A DNA stretch of 64,000 bases. Source: Candidatus Micrarchaeota archaeon (GTDB lineage: Archaea; Micrarchaeota; Micrarchaeia; CABMEP01). Positions within the stretch are counted from its first letter, which is position 1; every line of letters starts with the position of its first letter. The notes under the pieces were generated by a model. The model saw only the letters and a list, made by a program, of their open reading frames with translations, was not told the DNA's origin and made no database searches. Position numbers and translations under genes: made by a program. The stretch lies in contig CAYHPR010000004.1 of assembly GCA_964358895.1 (NCBI GenBank), positions 2,752 through 66,751 of the forward strand, in the 5' to 3' direction. Shown here one piece after another: positions 24,605-35,499 of the stretch.

Positions 24605-25285
24605 TCAGCCGACAGTTGTTCCGATAAACTTTCTTCCATGTAGAATCTCGTCTAAATTTTCCATGTTCTTACCGTTTGCGATGATAACTTTAAGCTTCAG
24701 CTTTTCAGCCAGCTTTGACGCAATCGGATCAAATGGAACATTTGCACCTGGATCCCATTTTGTACCGACGATCTTTCTAAATTCTTTCCAATTAATTGCC
24801 TTTATCGGTCTTGCATCTGGATACTTCTTTGGATTTTTGTTATAAACATAATCCACATTTGACAAATTAATCAATTGAGTAACTCTGAAGTTTTTAGCAA
24901 GTAAAACTGCATCGTAATCTGTTGAAGATCCAGGTTTCCAACCAGCTGCAACCACAACTCTCTCTTTATCTTTAAGCTTTAATTTTTCAGTTGGATTATG
25001 AATGACTATCGGATGAGCTATATTCTTAAAAATAATCTTAATTAACTGAGCATTCAAACGGGTGGAATGTATGCCTATCCAATCTAGATCCTCAGATCCC
25101 AGCTTCATAACACCTGATGCAGCTTCCTGATATCGACGTGCAGTCTTCCCACCACCGCAGATTATGATAAATCGGCTCTCTTTTATGTGGTTTAGAATAA
25201 TCTCTCTGAATCGTTTAAGAAAATTTACATCAACCTTATCTGGAACAATCAGCGATCCTCCCAGCGAAATAATATAAGTGTGCAT
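24605..25285 (-). CDS. pyrH: UMP kinase (archaeal type)
   Basis: MHTYIISLGGSLIVPDKVD...IIICGGGKTARRYQEA is the amino-acid kinase fold signature. 226 aa matches archaeal PyrH. Confidence 0.75.
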   Translation of the reverse strand: MHTYIISLGGSLIVPDKVDVNFLKRFREIILNHIKESRFIIICGGGKTARRYQEAASGVMKLGSEDLDWIGIHSTRLNAQLIKIIFKNIAHPIVIHNPTEKLKLKDKERVVVAAGWKPGSSTDYDAVLLAKNFRVTQLINLSNVDYVYNKNPKKYPDARPIKAINWKEFRKIVGTKWDPGANVPFDPIASKLAEKLKLKVIIANGKNMENLDEILHGRKFIGTTVG

Positions 25286-26582: not shown

Positions 26583-27869
26583 ATGTTAGACATAAAACTT
26601 ATTCGAACACAACCCGAAGTTGTCAAAGAGGCGATGAAGAACAGAGGCCAGGATATCGACATTGACACTTTTCTGAATATCGACAGAAAGAAAAGAGACT
26701 TGATGATTGAAAGCGACAAGATACGTGCAAAAAGAAACATGATTGAAAAGGATATCGCACGAATGAAAAAAGGATTACCCTGCGAGAGTGGTTTCTGCAC
26801 AAACGAGCAGCAGGCAATGGCTGCCATGAAAGATCTGTCGAAACGGATAGAAGAAAGTGAAGTTGAGTTAAAGCAGCTGGAGGAACAGACTGACCTGCTT
26901 CTCTATACGATGCCAAACATACCTCACGAAAGCGTCCCAGTTGGGAAGAAGGATGAATCGATCGAGGTACGCAAGAATGGAACGCCTCAAAAGACTTCAA
27001 AGGATGTTAAAGCGCATTGGGAGATTGGACCTCAACTTGGGCTTATTGATTTTGAACGCGGAGTTAAGCTTGCAGGACACCGATTTACGGTGCTGTGGGA
27101 CGATGCTGCAGCGCTTGAGAGAGCGCTTGTTAATTTCATGCTTGATACCGCCAAATCGCGGGGTTATCGAGAAGCATGGGTCCCTTACATAGTTAATGAG
27201 AAAACAATGACTGGAACAGGTCAGTTGCCGAAGTTTGCTGCTGAGCTTTACAATATACGCGAGGATCACGGAAACATGTGGCTAATTCCAACTGGAGAAG
27301 TACCACTGACAAACTTACACTCGGGAGAAGTACTGAAAGAAAAAGATCTACCGATTAAATATACTGCATACACTCCATGCTTCCGCCGCGAAGCTGGGGA
27401 ATATGGCAAGGATATCAAAGGATTCTTACGCCAGCATCAATTTGACAAAGTTGAACTTGTCAAATTTGCAACACCTGAACAATCTTATGAAGAACTGGAG
27501 AAGCTGGTAACGGATGCGGAAGAAGTTTTGAAGCTTCTTGATCTTCCTTACAAAGTTGTTGAACTGACAACTGGAGATTTAGGATTTGCATCAACTAAAA
27601 CGTATGATATTGAAGTGTGGGTCCCTTCTCAGGATAAATACCGCGAAATTTCTTCTTGTTCCAATTGTGGAACCTTCCAGGCCCGCCGTGCAAATATTAA
27701 GTATTGGAAAGCTGGAAAGCCTGAATTCGTACACACTTTGAATGGATCCGGACTTGCAGTTGGCAGGACCTTGATAGCTATTTTTGAAAACTACCAACAG
27801 GACGACGGAAGTATTAAAGTTCCAGACGTGCTGACTAAGTATATGAACAAATCAGTGATAGGTCGGTAG
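26583..27869 (+). CDS. serS: Seryl-tRNA synthetase
   Basis: MLDIKLIRTQPEVVKEAMKNRG N-terminal coiled-coil arm. Class II motifs (FRRE..., GSGLAVGRTLIAIFENYQ). 428 aa. Confidence 0.9.
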   Translation: MLDIKLIRTQPEVVKEAMKNRGQDIDIDTFLNIDRKKRDLMIESDKIRAKRNMIEKDIARMKKGLPCESGFCTNEQQAMAAMKDLSKRIEESEVELKQLEEQTDLLLYTMPNIPHESVPVGKKDESIEVRKNGTPQKTSKDVKAHWEIGPQLGLIDFERGVKLAGHRFTVLWDDAAALERALVNFMLDTAKSRGYREAWVPYIVNEKTMTGTGQLPKFAAELYNIREDHGNMWLIPTGEVPLTNLHSGEVLKEKDLPIKYTAYTPCFRREAGEYGKDIKGFLRQHQFDKVELVKFATPEQSYEELEKLVTDAEEVLKLLDLPYKVVELTTGDLGFASTKTYDIEVWVPSQDKYREISSCSNCGTFQARRANIKYWKAGKPEFVHTLNGSGLAVGRTLIAIFENYQQDDGSIKVPDVLTKYMNKSVIGR

Positions 27870-27871
27870 CA

Positions 27872-29074
27872 ATGGTTAGCGAAGGAAAAAAGAGACGGGA
27901 ACTAGCGAAGCTCTTAAGCAAACTGAAAGGATTCAGGGGTAGTGGAACTGAATTAATAACCGTGTATATACCAACAGGATATCCTTTAGCTGAAATTTCG
28001 AATAAATTGAGAAATGAATACGGACAAGCTGCCAACATCAAATCTAAATCGACAAAGAATAATGTTCAAGCCGCGCTCGACAAGATTATTCAATACCTGA
28101 AGATTTTCAAACAGACCCCAGATAATGGATTAGCTATTTTCTGCGGAAACATATCGAAGGACCCTGGAAGACCTAACATAGAACTATTTGCACTCTCCCC
28201 CCACCAACCTCTGCAGATTCAGATGTACAGATGCGACTCAGAATTTCAAATGGAACCGCTTCTGATGATGGGAAAGGTAAGAGAGAAGTACGGGTTAGTA
28301 ACAATTGATGGAAAAGATGCAACTGTTGCAATACTTGAAGGAAATGTAACAAAGATTGTGAGGAGACTTACCACCACAGGACCTAGCAAGACTACAAAAG
28401 GGGGGAGTTCGGCAGCTCGATACCAGCGTTATGTTGAAGAGCTTATTGAAAATTATTACACTCGAGTAGGGGAAGCAATGGATGAGACATTGATGACTAT
28501 CGGAATCAAAAAAGTTTTTGTTGGAGGACCTGGACCAGTTAAAGACAACTTTCTCAAAAAGAAGCCATTCAACTATCAATTTCAGATACTTGGCGTTTTT
28601 GATATTGGATACGTTGATGATTATGGAATCAGTGAACTAGCAAGAAAAACAAATGATGTAATTGCTGAAGCAAAGGCTATGAGAGAGAAGAAATTGATTG
28701 GAGAGTTTATGAAAGAAATCGCTAAAGAAGGATTAGCAGTTTATGGGCCAAAAGAAACGATGGAAGCACTTGAAAAAGGAAGGATTGGAACGCTGCTCAT
28801 GTCTGAAAAATTTATATCGAAACTTTTGAGAATTAGATGTGAAAAAGGAGATGAAGAAGACATTATTATTGAAAGAGAAGAGGAGAAAGAAGAAATAAAA
28901 TGCAGTAAAGGCCACGAAGTAGAGTTTATTGGAGAAACCGACCTTTTTGACCAGCTCTATGATAAAGCAGAAGCAAAAGGGATTGATGTTGAAACTATTG
29001 CTTCTGACACAATGGAAGGACAGCAATTCCTGGCAGGATTCAAAGGAATCGGTGCTATTCTAAAATATAAATAA
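27872..29074 (+). CDS. prf1: Peptide chain release factor aRF1 homolog (GGQ motif reads GGS)
   Basis: NIKS motif (QAANIKSKST) and YxCxxxF (YRCDSEF) are present. Domain 2 reads TKGGSSAARYQRY where canonical aRF1 has GGQSALRFxRL. C-terminal domain with GFKGIGAILKY. Confidence 0.75.
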   Translation: MVSEGKKRRELAKLLSKLKGFRGSGTELITVYIPTGYPLAEISNKLRNEYGQAANIKSKSTKNNVQAALDKIIQYLKIFKQTPDNGLAIFCGNISKDPGRPNIELFALSPHQPLQIQMYRCDSEFQMEPLLMMGKVREKYGLVTIDGKDATVAILEGNVTKIVRRLTTTGPSKTTKGGSSAARYQRYVEELIENYYTRVGEAMDETLMTIGIKKVFVGGPGPVKDNFLKKKPFNYQFQILGVFDIGYVDDYGISELARKTNDVIAEAKAMREKKLIGEFMKEIAKEGLAVYGPKETMEALEKGRIGTLLMSEKFISKLLRIRCEKGDEEDIIIEREEEKEEIKCSKGHEVEFIGETDLFDQLYDKAEAKGIDVETIASDTMEGQQFLAGFKGIGAILKYK

Positions 29075-29109: not shown

Positions 29110-30198
29110 TTAGATTATTTTAGCGCTAATTATCGTCACATTCTGTAACGGCCTGTCGTCGGAATCTGTTTGCACCTTTCCTATCTTATCGACAACATCC
29201 ATCCCCTCGATAACTTTGCCGAAAACAGGATGCTTGCTGTCAAGGAAATTATTATTTACCAAATTGATAAAGAACTGGCTGCCTCCGGTGTTTGGACCTG
29301 CATTTGCCATTGCAATCGTTCCTCTGTCATTTTTATTGTTAGCAGTGAATTCGTCTTTTATTGTATAACTTGGGCCACCTGCCCCAGTTCCTGTCGGGTC
29401 TCCACCTTGAATCATGAAGCCGGACATTACACGATGGAATATTACTCCGTCGTAAAAGCCTTGGCCGACTAGTTTTGCAAAGTTTCCTGCAGTTATTGGC
29501 ATATCTGATCTAAGCTCTAGAGTTATGTTACCCATATTTGTTTCAAGTAGCACTTTTGTGCTGCTACCTGTTCCCGTGGTTGTTGCATTCTTCGACATAT
29601 TTTCACCTACCTGACTAGTTTGATTAACTGCTTGAATAATTGTTTGGTTATCTGATACTGTACCAGTTTCTGCGCCGGTTGACTGCGATACTTCGAATTT
29701 ACATTCCTGTTCAAATGTTTCATCAACAAACAGATATGCGACATGATCCGTGAAAATTGAATAGGATGCGCCGTATTTAATATCGAAATAAGTCCTGTTT
29801 GCATTCTCATCTACACACTCTTTCGGCGTCTTTGTTATCGTATTATTCTGTAGGATTGGATTGCTATACGTGCACTCGCTATCGCTGACTACATAAATGT
29901 GAAGATTACTTATATTTTTTCCAAGCTTACCCCAACTGCCTGCCAAACCAGCACCACAAGCGTATAGATATCTAGCCTGATCCGCAGCTGCGCTGCTTAC
30001 ATTCATTACTATTCCTAACTCATTTGAAGCCTGCAGCGTTTCCGAAAACTTTTGAAGCGAAGCACCTGAAGGAGATTGGTTCTTATCTGCTGAAGGAATC
30101 TTTGAGCCTTGTGTGAAGTAAAAAGCAAGGATGAAAATGACAAATAGCCCCACTATTATGTACATTGGTATTTCCTTAGATTGTTTGTTTTCTTGCAT
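29110..30198 (-). CDS. Membrane-anchored cyclophilin-type peptidyl-prolyl cis-trans isomerase
   Basis: N-terminal TM (IIVGLFVIFILAFYF), a linker region, then a cyclophilin domain (FHRVMSGFMIQGGDPTGTGAGG...GTIAMANAGPNTGGSQFFI). Confidence 0.75.
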   Translation of the reverse strand: MQENKQSKEIPMYIIVGLFVIFILAFYFTQGSKIPSADKNQSPSGASLQKFSETLQASNELGIVMNVSSAAADQARYLYACGAGLAGSWGKLGKNISNLHIYVVSDSECTYSNPILQNNTITKTPKECVDENANRTYFDIKYGASYSIFTDHVAYLFVDETFEQECKFEVSQSTGAETGTVSDNQTIIQAVNQTSQVGENMSKNATTTGTGSSTKVLLETNMGNITLELRSDMPITAGNFAKLVGQGFYDGVIFHRVMSGFMIQGGDPTGTGAGGPSYTIKDEFTANNKNDRGTIAMANAGPNTGGSQFFINLVNNNFLDSKHPVFGKVIEGMDVVDKIGKVQTDSDDRPLQNVTIISAKII

Positions 30199-30346: not shown

Positions 30347-32446
30347 TTATTCGATAAGCTTTGAGAACAAACACTCATTGAAGTATGCTTCATCTCCTTC
30401 AACAACTGCTTCTACTTTATAGAATGTGTAAAATGAACTAGCATTCTTTGATCCATATTTCAACCTTATTAGAGGTGTACGGCCTACGTCATTAAGGCAT
30501 TCTGAAACTATCTTCTCGTTGCATACTCCATCAATAACATCAATCTTTGTAACTGTCTTACCTAACGCAGTTAATGCCTGTTCAATCTTTGACCCGCACC
30601 CAGCCATCGCAGCAGCATTGGAAGTGGAGGATCGCTCTAAGAATAACACAGTTGCATTGTCCTTCTTTGCCTGGTTTAGATAATTGAATAAACTTGTCTG
30701 GCCCGTTTCCTTGCTCACTAAGGAGTTAAGACCGAGAGATAGGCCGATAAGAAGAATGAAAACGAATGCAAATATTATTGTCCAAGTCTTCATCACATTT
30801 GACTGCATAAATTTCTCGGTATTTCTCCATACTATGAAGAAGAATCCGATAGCGAATGATGCAAGCACAAGTATATCGACAACTGCGATTACTAGAAGAG
30901 GAATGTTTGCAATCCATGCCCTCTTTTCACTTTCCTTTACACCGAATGGTGCAGATATAACGTCAAGAACTGCTAGCGAGATGCCACGTGCAGTGCTTGT
31001 GAGCAAGTTATCAGCTGCAGCAGCTTCAAGAGTTCGTTTCTTTTCTACTATTGAAGAAGTATCGGACGTGATAGTGTTGTAATTTGAAGCAAGTGTGTCT
31101 ATCTCGTTATAGCTAATCTTCGCAGTTACACGTATTTCAAGTGAAGCAAATTTATCCCTCTGCGTCTTAAGATCAGATGAAAGAACTGCGTCTGAAGATT
31201 CAATAAGAAGTGACGCTCTGGCTAGCATGACAGACGCATTTAATCTTGCATCTACAACTGGTCCAAGTGTCACAAAGGATGCATTAAGATAAGCATCAAA
31301 TTCCGTAAGCTTCGAATCAATTGAAGAAACTGTCAGACCTGCTTGGTCATAAAGTTTTGCGTCGACGTTAGAATAGTATTGAGCACTGAGTTCAGTTATT
31401 GCATTAACATAAACAGTAATGTTTTCATCACTAACTAATGCAGTTATCGAAGCGGATCTTGTAGTGAGGTTATTGAATTTGGAAGTGAGAACTTCGAATT
31501 GTTCCTGCACAGATCCTTTCTGCTTCGTTCCCGTGTAAAGTTCAATTCTCGCCAGAGTGGAATTAATAATTTCTTTAGCCTTGCTGGATGTAGTGTCAAA
31601 ACATGCTGCCTTTGTCTTGATCGTCGATGCTTTTGAAGCGGCACTAGTAAGCGCAGAGTTATTTAGAGCAAGAGTAAATCCGACAGGTAAACAGAATTCA
31701 AACCCTCCAGAGTTACTTCTTATGTATAATTTGAGAGCTGAATAATTACCTGACAAATTCTGCAGAATTGTTACACTATTTGAGATATCTTGTGCTTTTT
31801 GTGAAACATTAAATGTGAGCTGTCCCGAGGAGGAAATACCTTTAAGTGTAGCTGTTGCTGAAAGGACAGCCGTAACGTTTGCATCAATACCTCGTTTAAC
31901 ATTCGCATACTTGAGCAATTCTGGTAAGAAGAGTGCGCTTCCCTGCGCGTATTGGAAGCAGGCATACGATCCCTGATTACATGCTATCTGGCAACTTTGA
32001 AGAGAAGTACAGTTTCCTTCGTCACCAACAGCCTGCCCAGTTATAGTATCACAATACCCTTCAAGAGTTCCGAAGGAAGTGCCAGTATACCTGCTGTTAT
32101 TAAATGCTAAAACTAAACCGCTAATATCACTAAGTTCAGTGGCAGAAGGGTAAGACGTTTCGAAGCAGTTGCCTTTGATCGCTAATTCAATCTCTGCTTC
32201 ATTTTTTACAAAATTGTCTGCTTTAAGAACAAATGTTTCTTTACCCCCTACAGTAACAATCTTGTAAAGGGTTCCATTAACTGTCGTATTTTTCTGCTGT
32301 ACAGAGGCTGTCGATTCAGTAGGATATAAGTAATCAGTAACGTTAACTGCTGCAAAAACAGTGGTTAAAAGAAGTGAAAGTACGAGGATAAATGTAGAGA
32401 GCCTTGCTGCTCTCTTTCTGTTTTCTACTGAAATAGAACTGTTCAT
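30347..32446 (-). CDS. Large surface protein: signal peptide, sequon-rich ectodomain, 2 C-terminal TM helices, Cys-containing cytoplasmic tail
   Basis: Signal (LSTFILVLSLLLTTVFAAVNV). Many NxS/T sequons. TM segments IPLLVIAVVDILVLASFAIGFFFIVW and TWTIIFAFVFILLIGLSLGL. 699 aa. Confidence 0.5.
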   Translation of the reverse strand: MNSSISVENRKRAARLSTFILVLSLLLTTVFAAVNVTDYLYPTESTASVQQKNTTVNGTLYKIVTVGGKETFVLKADNFVKNEAEIELAIKGNCFETSYPSATELSDISGLVLAFNNSRYTGTSFGTLEGYCDTITGQAVGDEGNCTSLQSCQIACNQGSYACFQYAQGSALFLPELLKYANVKRGIDANVTAVLSATATLKGISSSGQLTFNVSQKAQDISNSVTILQNLSGNYSALKLYIRSNSGGFEFCLPVGFTLALNNSALTSAASKASTIKTKAACFDTTSSKAKEIINSTLARIELYTGTKQKGSVQEQFEVLTSKFNNLTTRSASITALVSDENITVYVNAITELSAQYYSNVDAKLYDQAGLTVSSIDSKLTEFDAYLNASFVTLGPVVDARLNASVMLARASLLIESSDAVLSSDLKTQRDKFASLEIRVTAKISYNEIDTLASNYNTITSDTSSIVEKKRTLEAAAADNLLTSTARGISLAVLDVISAPFGVKESEKRAWIANIPLLVIAVVDILVLASFAIGFFFIVWRNTEKFMQSNVMKTWTIIFAFVFILLIGLSLGLNSLVSKETGQTSLFNYLNQAKKDNATVLFLERSSTSNAAAMAGCGSKIEQALTALGKTVTKIDVIDGVCNEKIVSECLNDVGRTPLIRLKYGSKNASSFYTFYKVEAVVEGDEAYFNECLFSKLIE

Positions 32447-32628: not shown

Positions 32629-35499
32629 TTAGGCCTTAGCAAGCAACTCAGAGATGAACTGCGATGCTGCTGCAGTCGTGTCGTCTGCAGTGTAACCTGC
32701 GACTACGATTCTCTGATCTGTTACTGCCTTGACAACTTTCACACCTGGTCTGTCGATCTTGACATCAGTGCCGCTGATTGTTCTTGCGGTTACTGTGTTG
32801 ATTAACTGACCTCCGACTAGAATCAACGATTCTGCGGATGGTGCTTCAGAGTCAAGTACAACAAGGCGTTCTGTTGCGCTCATCTTGTATGGTACTGAGA
32901 AGGAACCAGAAGCTGCTCCCGTATCGAGAACTGCTTTCATTGTGCCCTTGTCAGCTGTACAAGAGGAGTTGCCTCCGCTTACTGTACAGGCTCCAACTGT
33001 TTCACTGACTGATTTGAGTTTCACAGTGCTATCTTGAATAGCTACTTGTCCACCCTCAGCCAATGTTACTGTTGATACTCCTGCTGCAGTTACGTTTGCA
33101 CCTGATGTTGCAAGCTGGTACTGGAACTCACCGAGTTTCTTTGCCATCTTCAAGGTTATAGAGTTGCTAGACCTTGAGGAGATGACTGAACCTCTCTGTG
33201 TAGTGTATCCTGCTTCAAATTCAGAAGCGGATGTCGTACCGGTTGCAGTCAAGTAGGTTGCATCAATCTTCGATTCACTGCCAGAGCTCGACTTGAATGT
33301 CGTTGCTGTTGAATTGGCTGTGAAAGAGACGTTTGTTGCCGTACCTGTCAATGCACTTTGCGTTGAGGATCCACCCTTGTTGACGTACTCTGTAACTCCC
33401 AGTGTCTCTGTAGTACCAACCTGTTTGAATGTCAGGTTTCCGTTCTCTGCAGAGTTGTCCTGGACGTTGTATGTCAATGTAGCATTTTCCAAATCAAATG
33501 GGAATGCCACTGATGTCGGGAAGAAACTTGTGTTCACAATGAACAATGCGGTTGCGTTGAACAATGCGTACGCGCCCAAACCGATGCTTGGACAACTTGA
33601 GTTAGATGCAGATACAGACCAAAGATTCGTGGTGTTTAACACGACATTTGAATCTGCTTGCAGCCTGAACGTGTAGTTCGCTCCAGCTATGTCAGTCCAA
33701 TTCTGAGTTAGGGTTATGTTACAGTTTATCGTACCCGTGTTATTGCTTCCGAATGTTCCTCCTCCACCATTACCGAAGGTATTGTTGGTATTGAGTGCAT
33801 TCATCCATGCAGTTCCGTTCCAGAGACCGATAGATGATCCATTCCAGACACCGGATGCATCGTCACGTACCAACGTGGTTGTTGTTGTTGGGACGTATCT
33901 GATGTAACCTTTGTCAGGCTTCTCGTACAACAGCGGTGTTGCATTTCCAAGACCAAAACAGACTTTTGATCTGTCATCGCTTGAAGCTGGTGCTGTTGCG
34001 AAAGCGAATGCCTTCTTAGCAGACGTAGCACAAACGTAGTATCTGATTAATGGATCAGATGATACTGCATTTGTATCTCCTTCCAACGTGTAGTAGGCCG
34101 GATTCTGAATGAAAGCAAAAGAGAGTGTATCTCTGCTTGCATCACTCAATGTCGTTCCACTCAACGTTAGTTTGAACAATGCTGGCGAACCAATAAGGTT
34201 GATGCTCTCGCCCTCAGCAAGAGTTGGTAATGAAGACCCAGTCAATGTGATGTTTCTCAACGTCAAATTGTTGATTCCACCACTTGATGTACCCCATGCC
34301 AAAGCCACTGTCCAGTTCTTGTTCAGATCACTGTCAACAACTCTACCGTTTGTAAGAGTTAACTCTTGCGATAGAACGGACATTTCTGCCCACTTTGCTG
34401 CAGTCAATCCTGGTGCAGTCTTGTAGACACGAATTGTAATCTTGTCACCGTTTGGCAAAATAAGTTCTTTTGCCGCAGATGTAGTTACAGTGTCTTCCTT
34501 AACTAGTACACCATTCTTGTCGTAGACCTGAATGATTGCCTGTGAATCTGCACCGCCTCCTAGTGGAACGGTTAAATCTTGAAGCTTAACTGAATAAGCT
34601 CCTGCAGACACATTCTGACCAGCGTAAACGATCTGAGCTGGTGTTGATTCCTTAGCAAGCTTAATTGAGCTTGGTGAATCAAGTGGCTTCATTTCGCTGA
34701 CGATCCAATCGTCACCGAGGTACTTAACTTTCAATCTTTGTCTTGACATCAAGTAAGTTTCGGCTGCTGTACAATTTCCTTCCAATACTGAAGTCGTTGC
34801 ATAAACAGTTGTTCCAGAATAAACTGAACTCAACGTACATGCTGGAACTCCACTGAAGGTGTCGTGCTCGAACTTGATGACATAACTCAACGACTGTGGG
34901 ATTACCTTGTACTTCTTCACATCAGTGAAGAAAGTTGGGGCGGATCCAGTCTCCATATATGCTTCTTGCTTCGTTGTGAACGAACCAGAAACTGTAGAGA
35001 CTGTAGTCTTTGAATCTGCGAAGCTCACGAAGTTATCTCCAGTGATCTTCTTTGGATTTAGTGCAGCTTCAGCCTGTTGGTTATCTTCGGTAGATGCGTT
35101 ATCATCGATAAATCCATACATATAAGTCCTAAACCCATATGCTCCTGCAACAACACTTGTACCAGGTGATGTTATTTCCAATGTAGCTTTCTTGTCTGTA
35201 ACAGAACATGATCCTGCTCCTGCTCCAGCAACACTACAAGTTGGTGAACCTGTTAGTTGTGCGGTTACTGTCTGACTCTTGTAAGCCAAACTTCCTATAA
35301 CAGCGGCTATGTTAGCGGCTGCAACTCCATCGGATGCCTTCGCGCTTGCTCCAACAACAACTTTTACGACGGGCTTACCTTGTGCGTTAACGATCTCGGT
35401 GTTCCCATACATAATTGGCGCTGCTGCCAAGAGTGATGCTCCTAATAGTGCTGCTCCTACTGTAACAGCTGCTATTTTATTTGCGTCTATACTTTTCAC
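32629..35499 (-). CDS. S-layer-like large surface glycoprotein (956 aa)
   Basis: GTG start with a strong SD (GAGGTGATATC-GTG). Signal peptide (AAVTVGAALLGASLLAAAPI). Thr/Ser/Gly/Asn-rich with dozens of NxS/T sequons. Local GC is noticeably higher than the surroundings. Confidence 0.55.
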   Translation of the reverse strand: MKSIDANKIAAVTVGAALLGASLLAAAPIMYGNTEIVNAQGKPVVKVVVGASAKASDGVAAANIAAVIGSLAYKSQTVTAQLTGSPTCSVAGAGAGSCSVTDKKATLEITSPGTSVVAGAYGFRTYMYGFIDDNASTEDNQQAEAALNPKKITGDNFVSFADSKTTVSTVSGSFTTKQEAYMETGSAPTFFTDVKKYKVIPQSLSYVIKFEHDTFSGVPACTLSSVYSGTTVYATTSVLEGNCTAAETYLMSRQRLKVKYLGDDWIVSEMKPLDSPSSIKLAKESTPAQIVYAGQNVSAGAYSVKLQDLTVPLGGGADSQAIIQVYDKNGVLVKEDTVTTSAAKELILPNGDKITIRVYKTAPGLTAAKWAEMSVLSQELTLTNGRVVDSDLNKNWTVALAWGTSSGGINNLTLRNITLTGSSLPTLAEGESINLIGSPALFKLTLSGTTLSDASRDTLSFAFIQNPAYYTLEGDTNAVSSDPLIRYYVCATSAKKAFAFATAPASSDDRSKVCFGLGNATPLLYEKPDKGYIRYVPTTTTTLVRDDASGVWNGSSIGLWNGTAWMNALNTNNTFGNGGGGTFGSNNTGTINCNITLTQNWTDIAGANYTFRLQADSNVVLNTTNLWSVSASNSSCPSIGLGAYALFNATALFIVNTSFFPTSVAFPFDLENATLTYNVQDNSAENGNLTFKQVGTTETLGVTEYVNKGGSSTQSALTGTATNVSFTANSTATTFKSSSGSESKIDATYLTATGTTSASEFEAGYTTQRGSVISSRSSNSITLKMAKKLGEFQYQLATSGANVTAAGVSTVTLAEGGQVAIQDSTVKLKSVSETVGACTVSGGNSSCTADKGTMKAVLDTGAASGSFSVPYKMSATERLVVLDSEAPSAESLILVGGQLINTVTARTISGTDVKIDRPGVKVVKAVTDQRIVVAGYTADDTTAAASQFISELLAKA

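Follow-up and report, generated by a model that had tools for sequence, protein, structure and literature searches.

To our knowledge, the tripeptide Gly-Gly-Gln (GGQ) is the textbook motif of all release factors across life's three domains. Bacteria, eukaryotes and archaea each have enzymes dedicated to methylating the Gln of this motif, and the study of the archaeal methyltransferase Mtq2 treats GGQ as universally conserved in the archaeal release factor aRF1 (PMC6144793). Likewise, the broadest survey of the aeRF1 superfamily regards this residue as the hallmark of its catalytic members, and classical aRF1s that are devoid of it go unmentioned in that survey (PMC6514570). The 64-kb window analysed here (the whole stretch of DNA, from contig CAYHPR010000004.1 of a Candidatus Micrarchaeota archaeon) encodes an aRF1 in which this tripeptide reads Gly-Gly-Ser (GGS). 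The novelty of the gene is that it is an aRF1 by descent, fold and genomic context that does not carry the best-known motif of its family, and the lineage to which it belongs contradicts the textbook universality of GGQ. In the searchable full text of the literature, the coverage of which is incomplete, no paper was found that joins GGQ or aRF1 with DPANN archaea or with Micrarchaeota, Aenigmarchaeota, Nanoarchaeota, Diapherotrites or ARMAN, and an earlier mention is possible. The gene and its motifs are located as follows.

27872..29074, plus strand: aRF1 gene, a class-I release factor ortholog with GGS (list of open reading frames, Pfam, TIGR03676, AlphaFold model)
28034..28045, plus strand: NIKS stop-codon-recognition motif, N55-S58, within QAANIKSKST (alignment of 39 sequences)
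28226..28246, plus strand: YxCxxxF motif, Y119-F125, reading YRCDSEF (alignment of 39 sequences)
28400..28408, plus strand: GGS tripeptide replacing GGQ at the tip of the domain-2 loop (sequence, phmmer alignment, model)

Canonical archaeal aRF1, as represented by the structures 4af1 and 3agk and by the family model TIGR03676, is similar to the window protein in its three domains, NIKS, YxCxxxF, Gly-Gly turn, loop length, Arg-rich helix and fold, and the aRF1s of other Micrarchaeota are encoded at the same locus. Of the two structures, 4af1 (labelled 'Archeal Release Factor aRF1') is presumably from Halobacterium salinarum, and 3agk (labelled 'archaeal translation termination factor, aRF1') is from what we take to be Aeropyrum pernix. 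The difference lies in the third residue of the catalytic tripeptide, which is Gln in the canonical factor and Ser in the window protein. Laboratory mutants have been altered at this very position, for example the Q-to-X substitutions of E. coli RF1 and RF2 (Shaw and Green, 2007), the Q253P substitution of RF2 (Santos, 2013), and the substitutions at Q185 of human eRF1, the last of which were reportedly made by Seit-Nebi in 2000 and 2001. These mutants are engineered and are described as lethal or deleterious in vivo (PMC9589212), whereas GGS arose in nature and has become fixed throughout a deep clade, where it is conserved. The N5-methylation by Mtq2 that has been demonstrated on the aRF1 of Haloferax (PMC6144793) is impossible on the GGS protein. 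Relatives of the Pelota/Dom34 and baeRF1/Balon types share with the window protein the eRF1 domains 2 and 3 and the absence of the catalytic Gln, but they are without the domain that carries NIKS and YxCxxxF, and their loop is reported to be poorly conserved in both sequence and length (PMC6514570).

The open reading frame 27872-29074 (+) encodes 400 amino acids followed by a stop codon, and matches the Pfam domains eRF1_1, eRF1_2 and eRF1_3 with 70.2, 88.4 and 81.7 bits, respectively. The NCBIfam model TIGR03676 for aRF1/eRF1 equivalogs scores 398.7 bits against a cut-off of 234.7 and spans residues 8-400, whereas the Pelota model TIGR00111 scores 56.6 bits, below its cut-off of 177.65, with a match limited to residues 137-317. 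These scores bear out the sequence-only reading of this DNA, which had identified the protein as aRF1 and not Pelota. The N-domain is eRF1_1 with NIKS and not the Sm-like N-domain of Pelota. Similarly, the hidden Markov models of baeRF1/Balon type remain below their cut-offs (NF052289 of the Rv2629 family, 41.8 vs 320; NF052288, 21.2 vs 480), and a match to the Pfam model baeRF_family10 overlaps the eRF1_2 domain. The AlphaFold model of the protein has the eRF1 fold (pLDDT 82.8), and its best matches in the PDB are the aRF1 4af1 (E 1e-40, TM 0.76) and the ribosome-accommodated eRF1 of 5lzv and 3jag (TM 0.77).

Positions 28400-28408 read GGG GGG AGT and encode G177, G178 and S179 of the protein. 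In gap-free phmmer alignments, 'KGGSSAARYQR' of the window protein falls on 'KGGQSAQRFAR' of 4af1 and on 'RGGQSALRFAR' of human eRF1, which places Ser179 at the position of the catalytic Gln, as had been claimed from the letters alone. By the GGQ criterion of the aRF1/eRF1 family the window protein falls outside, its tripeptide being GGS; on these alignments, the gene is a family member by descent and a variant by motif. The stop-codon-recognition motifs NIKS and YxCxxxF, both of which had been noticed before, are present, and the columns N55-K59, Y119, C121, S123 and F125 are invariant among 39 aligned GGS and GGQ sequences. The window protein also keeps both glycines, an unchanged loop length and the Arg-rich helix that follows the loop (alignment, model), and in the predicted model GGS ends the flexible domain-2 loop directly before the long helix 179-206. 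A shifted motif was considered and rejected for the GGS clade described below, as no Gln occurs within its GGSSAA loop in the homologue alignments and the next Gln (RYQR, +6) is also found in the relatives that bear GGQ.

The best 120 homologues were taken from a collection of 5.8 billion proteins, and their sources label them Micrarchaeota or Micrarchaeia. GGS is present in 33 of them and GGQ in the other 87, Ser and Gln each being invariant in its own group. In a neighbour-joining tree the 33 GGS proteins, which come from NCBI, JGI, ENA and Logan sources and are 49-100% identical to the window protein, form one clade nested within the Micrarchaeota aRF1s, and the sister group of this clade (P0049, P0065) is GGQ. 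The decisive check suggested by the sequence-only reading, i.e., whether GGS is lineage-wide, is thus answered in the affirmative for 33/33 members of a single monophyletic clade. Only eight alignment columns set the clade apart from the GGQ Micrarchaeota. Three of them are in or beside the loop (A170G, H171P and Q179S), although the GGQ sister group already has H171P. The remaining five are conservative hydrophobic or acidic swaps elsewhere.

JGI metagenomes were scanned with a DNA pattern in which the flanks were fixed (P..K..KGG?SA.RY) and the critical codon was left free, and 43 loci were returned. All 15 loci of the GGS clade encode Ser at this codon (TCA 6, TCG 3, TCC 2, TCT 1, AGT 3), and the TCN and AGY families of Ser codons alternate at least twice on the tree. 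For example, L090 (TCA) and L096 (AGT) have identical local peptides with different Ser codon families. A switch between TCN and AGY takes two changes, or a Thr or Cys intermediate. The retention of Ser through such switches implies that the residue has been maintained for a long evolutionary period. Purifying selection on the gene is strong; in comparison with the 83%-identical relative L126, the nonsynonymous divergence (dN) is 0.10 and the synonymous sites are saturated (proportion of synonymous differences, pS = 0.91).

The genes that surround aRF1 in the window are the following.

Before the pyrH-like kinase: a thermosome gene, then an RNase-H-like gene
24605..25285, minus strand: pyrH-like amino-acid kinase (Pfam AA_kinase), a conserved neighbour of aRF1 in many archaea
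Between the pyrH-like kinase and serS: two small open reading frames
26583..27869, plus strand: serS, seryl-tRNA synthetase (Pfam Seryl_tRNA_N, tRNA-synt_2b), which stops 2 nt before the start of aRF1
29110..30198, minus strand: cyclophilin-type peptidyl-prolyl isomerase with a long N-terminal extension (Pfam Pro_isomerase), downstream of aRF1
30347..32446, minus strand: membrane or secreted protein of 699 aa, no Pfam match, a downstream neighbour
32629..35499, minus strand: S-layer-like protein of 956 aa (Pfam S_layer_C), at the far end of the conserved neighbourhood

This arrangement is found in GGQ and GGS genomes alike. In about 35 GGQ loci of Micrarchaeota and in the GGS loci L114, L116 and L120, the gene immediately upstream of aRF1, in the same orientation, is serS, and pyrH adjoins aRF1 in loci of Hadarchaeota and Iainarchaeota as well as in the GGS loci L086, L090, L092, L096, L120 and L122. 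On the other side, the cyclophilin gene is syntenic with aRF1 in L085, L086, L096, L114, L116 and L120, while homologues of the 699-aa protein are located downstream of aRF1 on the opposite strand in four GGQ loci (L005, L007, L009, L022) and three GGS loci (L086, L114, L120). The S-layer-like protein has counterparts of 61-62% identity in L114 and L120, and the GGQ loci L004 and L005 also encode it. The order in the GGQ locus L005 (pyrH, then aRF1 followed by the 699-aa and S-layer-like proteins) is that of the window, and the GGS loci L114, L116 and L120 carry the full window arrangement. Since this neighbourhood is common to the GGQ loci, the GGS gene occupies the ancestral position of aRF1, and hence the window gene is a positional ortholog and not an obvious paralog.

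Two neighbours have features of their own. The seryl-tRNA synthetase (SerRS) of the window shares 54-57% identity with the SerRS beside the GGQ aRF1 of distant Micrarchaeota (L003/L004/L006/L010) and just 36-37% with its counterparts next to the closest GGS aRF1 genes (L114/L116/L120), a pattern which suggests that two SerRS types have been exchanged at the same locus. The adjacent SerRS was dropped as a relative-rate clock, being nearer to the distant GGQ genomes than to the closest GGS genomes; the other neighbours and an outgroup comparison replaced this test. In the product of 29110-30198 (-), the cyclophilin domain corresponds to residues 216-360 and is preceded by about 210 residues with a hydrophobic N-terminus and a Ser/Thr/Asn-rich composition, and the protein is probably secreted or membrane-anchored.

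No second eRF1-like gene is found within the 64-kb window, which is a small part of the genome. A scan of a genome collection, in which the best match listed is 53% identical and no GGS-clade genome is among the matches listed, gave as its best 80 aRF1 loci one locus in each of 80 different assemblies. The genes of the window end in TAA (31), TAG (12) and TGA (8) at a coding density of 90%; nothing in the window points to an altered code, which suggests the standard genetic code. The NPPY methyltransferase motif (Mtq2/PrmC) is absent from the open reading frames of the window, a scan that says nothing on the rest of the genome.

Replacement of the Gln is not confined to the GGS clade. The free-codon scan of metagenomes also gave three GGM sequences (L094, L118, L124). 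Among the 120 nearest relatives of one GGM sequence, labelled Aenigmatarchaeota by their source, 119 have a readable motif, which is GGM in 115, GGW in 3, GGF in 1 and GGQ in none. Most of these GGM proteins read GGMSQ, with a Gln two residues on, while GGMSA or GGMSS is found in about a tenth. When the window protein was searched exhaustively with HMMER against 1.84 billion representatives of 50%-identity clusters, 148 top matches had a readable motif, in which the position is occupied by Gln (125), Trp (12), Met (5), Phe (3), Ser (2) or Ala (1), so that 23/148 of the nearest representatives (about 16%) are without Gln. The nearest relatives of a clade of eight GGW proteins (GGWSQ) are GGQ proteins of Iainarchaeota/Diapherotrites-like type. 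In a single genome (Micrarchaeota MAS3.bin46, JAJZMY010000037.1) the aRF1 at L058:6508-6560 reads AHAKVRKGGASAGRYERAI, i.e., GGA with the codon GCA, which may be a trait of its lineage or an error, and serS is upstream of this gene as usual. Judged from these homologues, the primary aRF1 of DPANN archaea has had its Gln replaced recurrently, and the GGS clade appears the most radical in this respect, its loop being free of Gln altogether.

The GGM, GGW and GGF proteins of Aenigmatarchaeota and those of the GGW clade are, like the GGS proteins, products of primary DPANN aRF1 genes in which the Gln has been replaced lineage-wide. They have a bulky hydrophobic residue at the position, most of them with the +2 Gln, whereas the GGS clade has GGSSAA without Gln. 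The +2 Gln is present in most GGM/GGW aRF1s (P0121-P0240; P0264, P0394-P0400), and GGQSQ occurs among canonical sequences also. By sequence, the +2 Gln of GGMSQ and GGWSQ may predate the loss of the catalytic Gln and could be able to take over its role, and a shifted motif is possible for these two. Both resemble the GGxSQ of archaeal Vms1-like factors (aVLRF1, PMC6514570), and the +2 Gln could substitute for the lost one.

We lean, by a little, towards a general reading in which DPANN archaea have dispensed with the catalytic Gln, and with its N5-methylation, more than once, namely in the GGS clade of Micrarchaeota, in the GGM/GGW/GGF Aenigmatarchaeota, in the GGW proteins near Iainarchaeota and in the one GGA genome. 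The variant aRF1 would be the sole release factor each time, and termination would depend on nothing but the Gly-Gly backbone and the ribosome, whose peptidyl-transferase centre may have changed to compensate. If true, the GGS and the parallel GGM/GGW/GGF lineages offer cases in nature on which the long-debated function of the Gln side chain and of its methylation can be tested, loss or re-purposing of Mtq2 is predicted in their genomes, and motif-based calls of release-factor homologues as 'inactive' can be wrong. An essential component of DPANN translation differs here at its active site.

For the window gene in particular, a reading in which we have reasonable confidence is that it is the ordinary, vertically inherited and working aRF1 of the organism, in which Gln was replaced by Ser in one Micrarchaeota clade and Ser has been kept since. 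Domain 1 would still read stop codons because NIKS and YxCxxxF are intact, and aEF1-alpha would deliver the factor to the ribosome. With the glycines, the loop length and the next helix unchanged in the alignment and the model, the Gly-Gly turn would put the loop into the peptidyl-transferase centre. There, as work on bacterial release factors suggests, the main-chain NH of residue 179, the 2'-OH of A76 and the rRNA would promote the hydrolysis of peptidyl-tRNA, and the Gln side chain would hence be dispensable for the chemistry. The side-chain packing, the water-selecting role and the N5-methylation by Mtq2 would be lost with the Gln, the last because Ser179 is not a substrate of Mtq2. The cost is probably in speed or in nucleophile selectivity and would be tolerable for a slow-growing organism of small genome; by analogy, the GGS aRF1 probably still releases peptides, with reduced speed or selectivity.

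Studies on known release factors are consistent with such activity. Small-residue substitutions at the Gln position reportedly reduce hydrolysis only modestly. The catalytic contribution of the residue has been attributed to its main-chain amide (PMC6742477, PMC5378476, PMC4691834), and the side chain is described as packing a pocket and selecting water as the nucleophile (Shaw and Green, 2007, via PMC4691834). Human eRF1 remains partly active when its Gln is mutated, going by the title of Seit-Nebi, 2000 (cited in PMC1976462).

Several points weigh against the window gene being a working aRF1. Gln substitutions are said to be lethal in yeast, in work by Song in 2000. A second canonical aRF1 may be present elsewhere in the genome, of which the window is a small part, and the GGS clade is slightly farther from non-DPANN aRF1s than its GGQ relatives are (40.6% vs 42.9% mean identity). 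The activity favoured for the window protein is drawn from sequence, model and analogy. The sequence-only reading had taken it that substitution of the Gln abolishes release. This was overstated, since only Pro, which is without the NH, abolishes activity, and it does so without deforming the loop (Santos, 2013, via PMC4691834). Exchange of the Gln is nevertheless lethal to E. coli (PMC9589212, citing Mora, 2003), and therefore something in these lineages must make the change tolerable; slow growth, an altered peptidyl-transferase centre and a further factor are the candidates.

The other explanations differ in how far they account for these observations. The sequence-only reading had allowed for an error in the G6 homopolymer, and six G's do stand before the altered codon; yet a sequencing or assembly error, or a pseudogene, can be set aside with near certainty. 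The identical protein and the identical 23-nt motif stretch are present in two independent ENA groundwater assemblies (L001, L002), and the relatives encode GGS with codons that are free of any homopolymer (for example, GGT GGT TCA and GGA GGA TCC), all 33 clade members having Ser with varied Gly and Ser codons; both results refute the error. Moreover, the change from CAR to AGT takes three substitutions and not an indel, and the G6 run leaves the reading frame undisturbed. A pseudogene is contradicted by the strong purifying selection and by the 400-codon frame, which is intact and aligns end to end. A division of labour is a more serious alternative, but an unlikely one. Here the GGS protein would bind stop codons while being catalytically weak or dead, and the peptide would be released by a factor encoded elsewhere, such as a second GGQ aRF1 that arose by duplication or was acquired by transfer, or a peptidyl-tRNA hydrolase of the Vms1-like or another type. 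In that case the part left to the GGS protein would be regulatory or one of rescue or recycling, much like that of Pelota. Loss of the loop Gln is indeed described as marking the non-catalytic aeRF1 relatives, i.e., Dom34/Pelota and most baeRF1 (Burroughs and Aravind, 2019, PMC6514570), and the lethality of GGQ mutants in E. coli (PMC9589212) and the slight extra divergence of the GGS clade also fit this explanation. The copy number, too, was seen for the 64-kb window only, with no GGS-clade genome among the matches listed.

Nevertheless, the gene is at the ancestral aRF1 locus common to the GGQ genomes, and its NIKS and YxCxxxF motifs, paired glycines, loop length and Arg-rich helix have been preserved, while the loop decays in Pelota and baeRF1. 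By analogy with the eRF1(AAQ) mutant, with which termination complexes are trapped (5lzv, 3jag), a stop-codon reader incapable of hydrolysis would be expected to stall termination by competing with the true factor. The single aRF1 locus in each of the best 80 related assemblies listed, and the 0/119 count of GGQ among the readable nearest Aenigmatarchaeota relatives, also argue against a division of labour. Less probable again is an active or modified Ser, the hydroxyl of which would coordinate the water or serve as a transient acyl acceptor, or which would bear a modification that restores the bulk of the side chain. In favour of it, Ser is kept in both codon families, and no Thr or Cys intermediate is seen in the 33 proteins and the 15 unbiased DNA matches, which would imply selection for Ser itself and not for any small residue. 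However, the position is filled by Met, Trp, Phe or Ala in other lineages, so no single chemistry is required, and the modification is hypothetical. The ordinary, working aRF1 remains the favoured account of the window gene.

Variation is also observed in other parts of these proteins. In the window subclade (P0001-P0013), most of the CxxC...CxC cysteines are gone from the domain-3 insertion at residues ~320-362 (~28830-28960), whereas other Micrarchaeota aRF1s retain them, probably as a zinc knuckle. NIKS is altered to NVKDK and NVKNK in the DPANN aRF1s L124 (GGM) and L084 (GGQ), and from these sequences the stop-codon-reading motif is variable as well in some DPANN lineages. A number of these aRF1s carry an intein of 135-500 aa, always at the exact junction of GGX and the next Ser (for example, GGS|C...HN|SAARY). 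Their carriers include P0006, P0025 and P0241 (GGS), P0059 (GGQ), P0137, P0223 and P0238 (GGM), and many of P0241-P0390. An intein is present in about a third of the nearest 50%-cluster representatives, which are biased to long sequences. In the 133 representatives parsed at first pass, inteins occur in 13/22 without Gln vs 40/111 with Gln (Fisher p = 0.057), and a link between intein residence and the loss of the Gln is an idea that these counts bring up.

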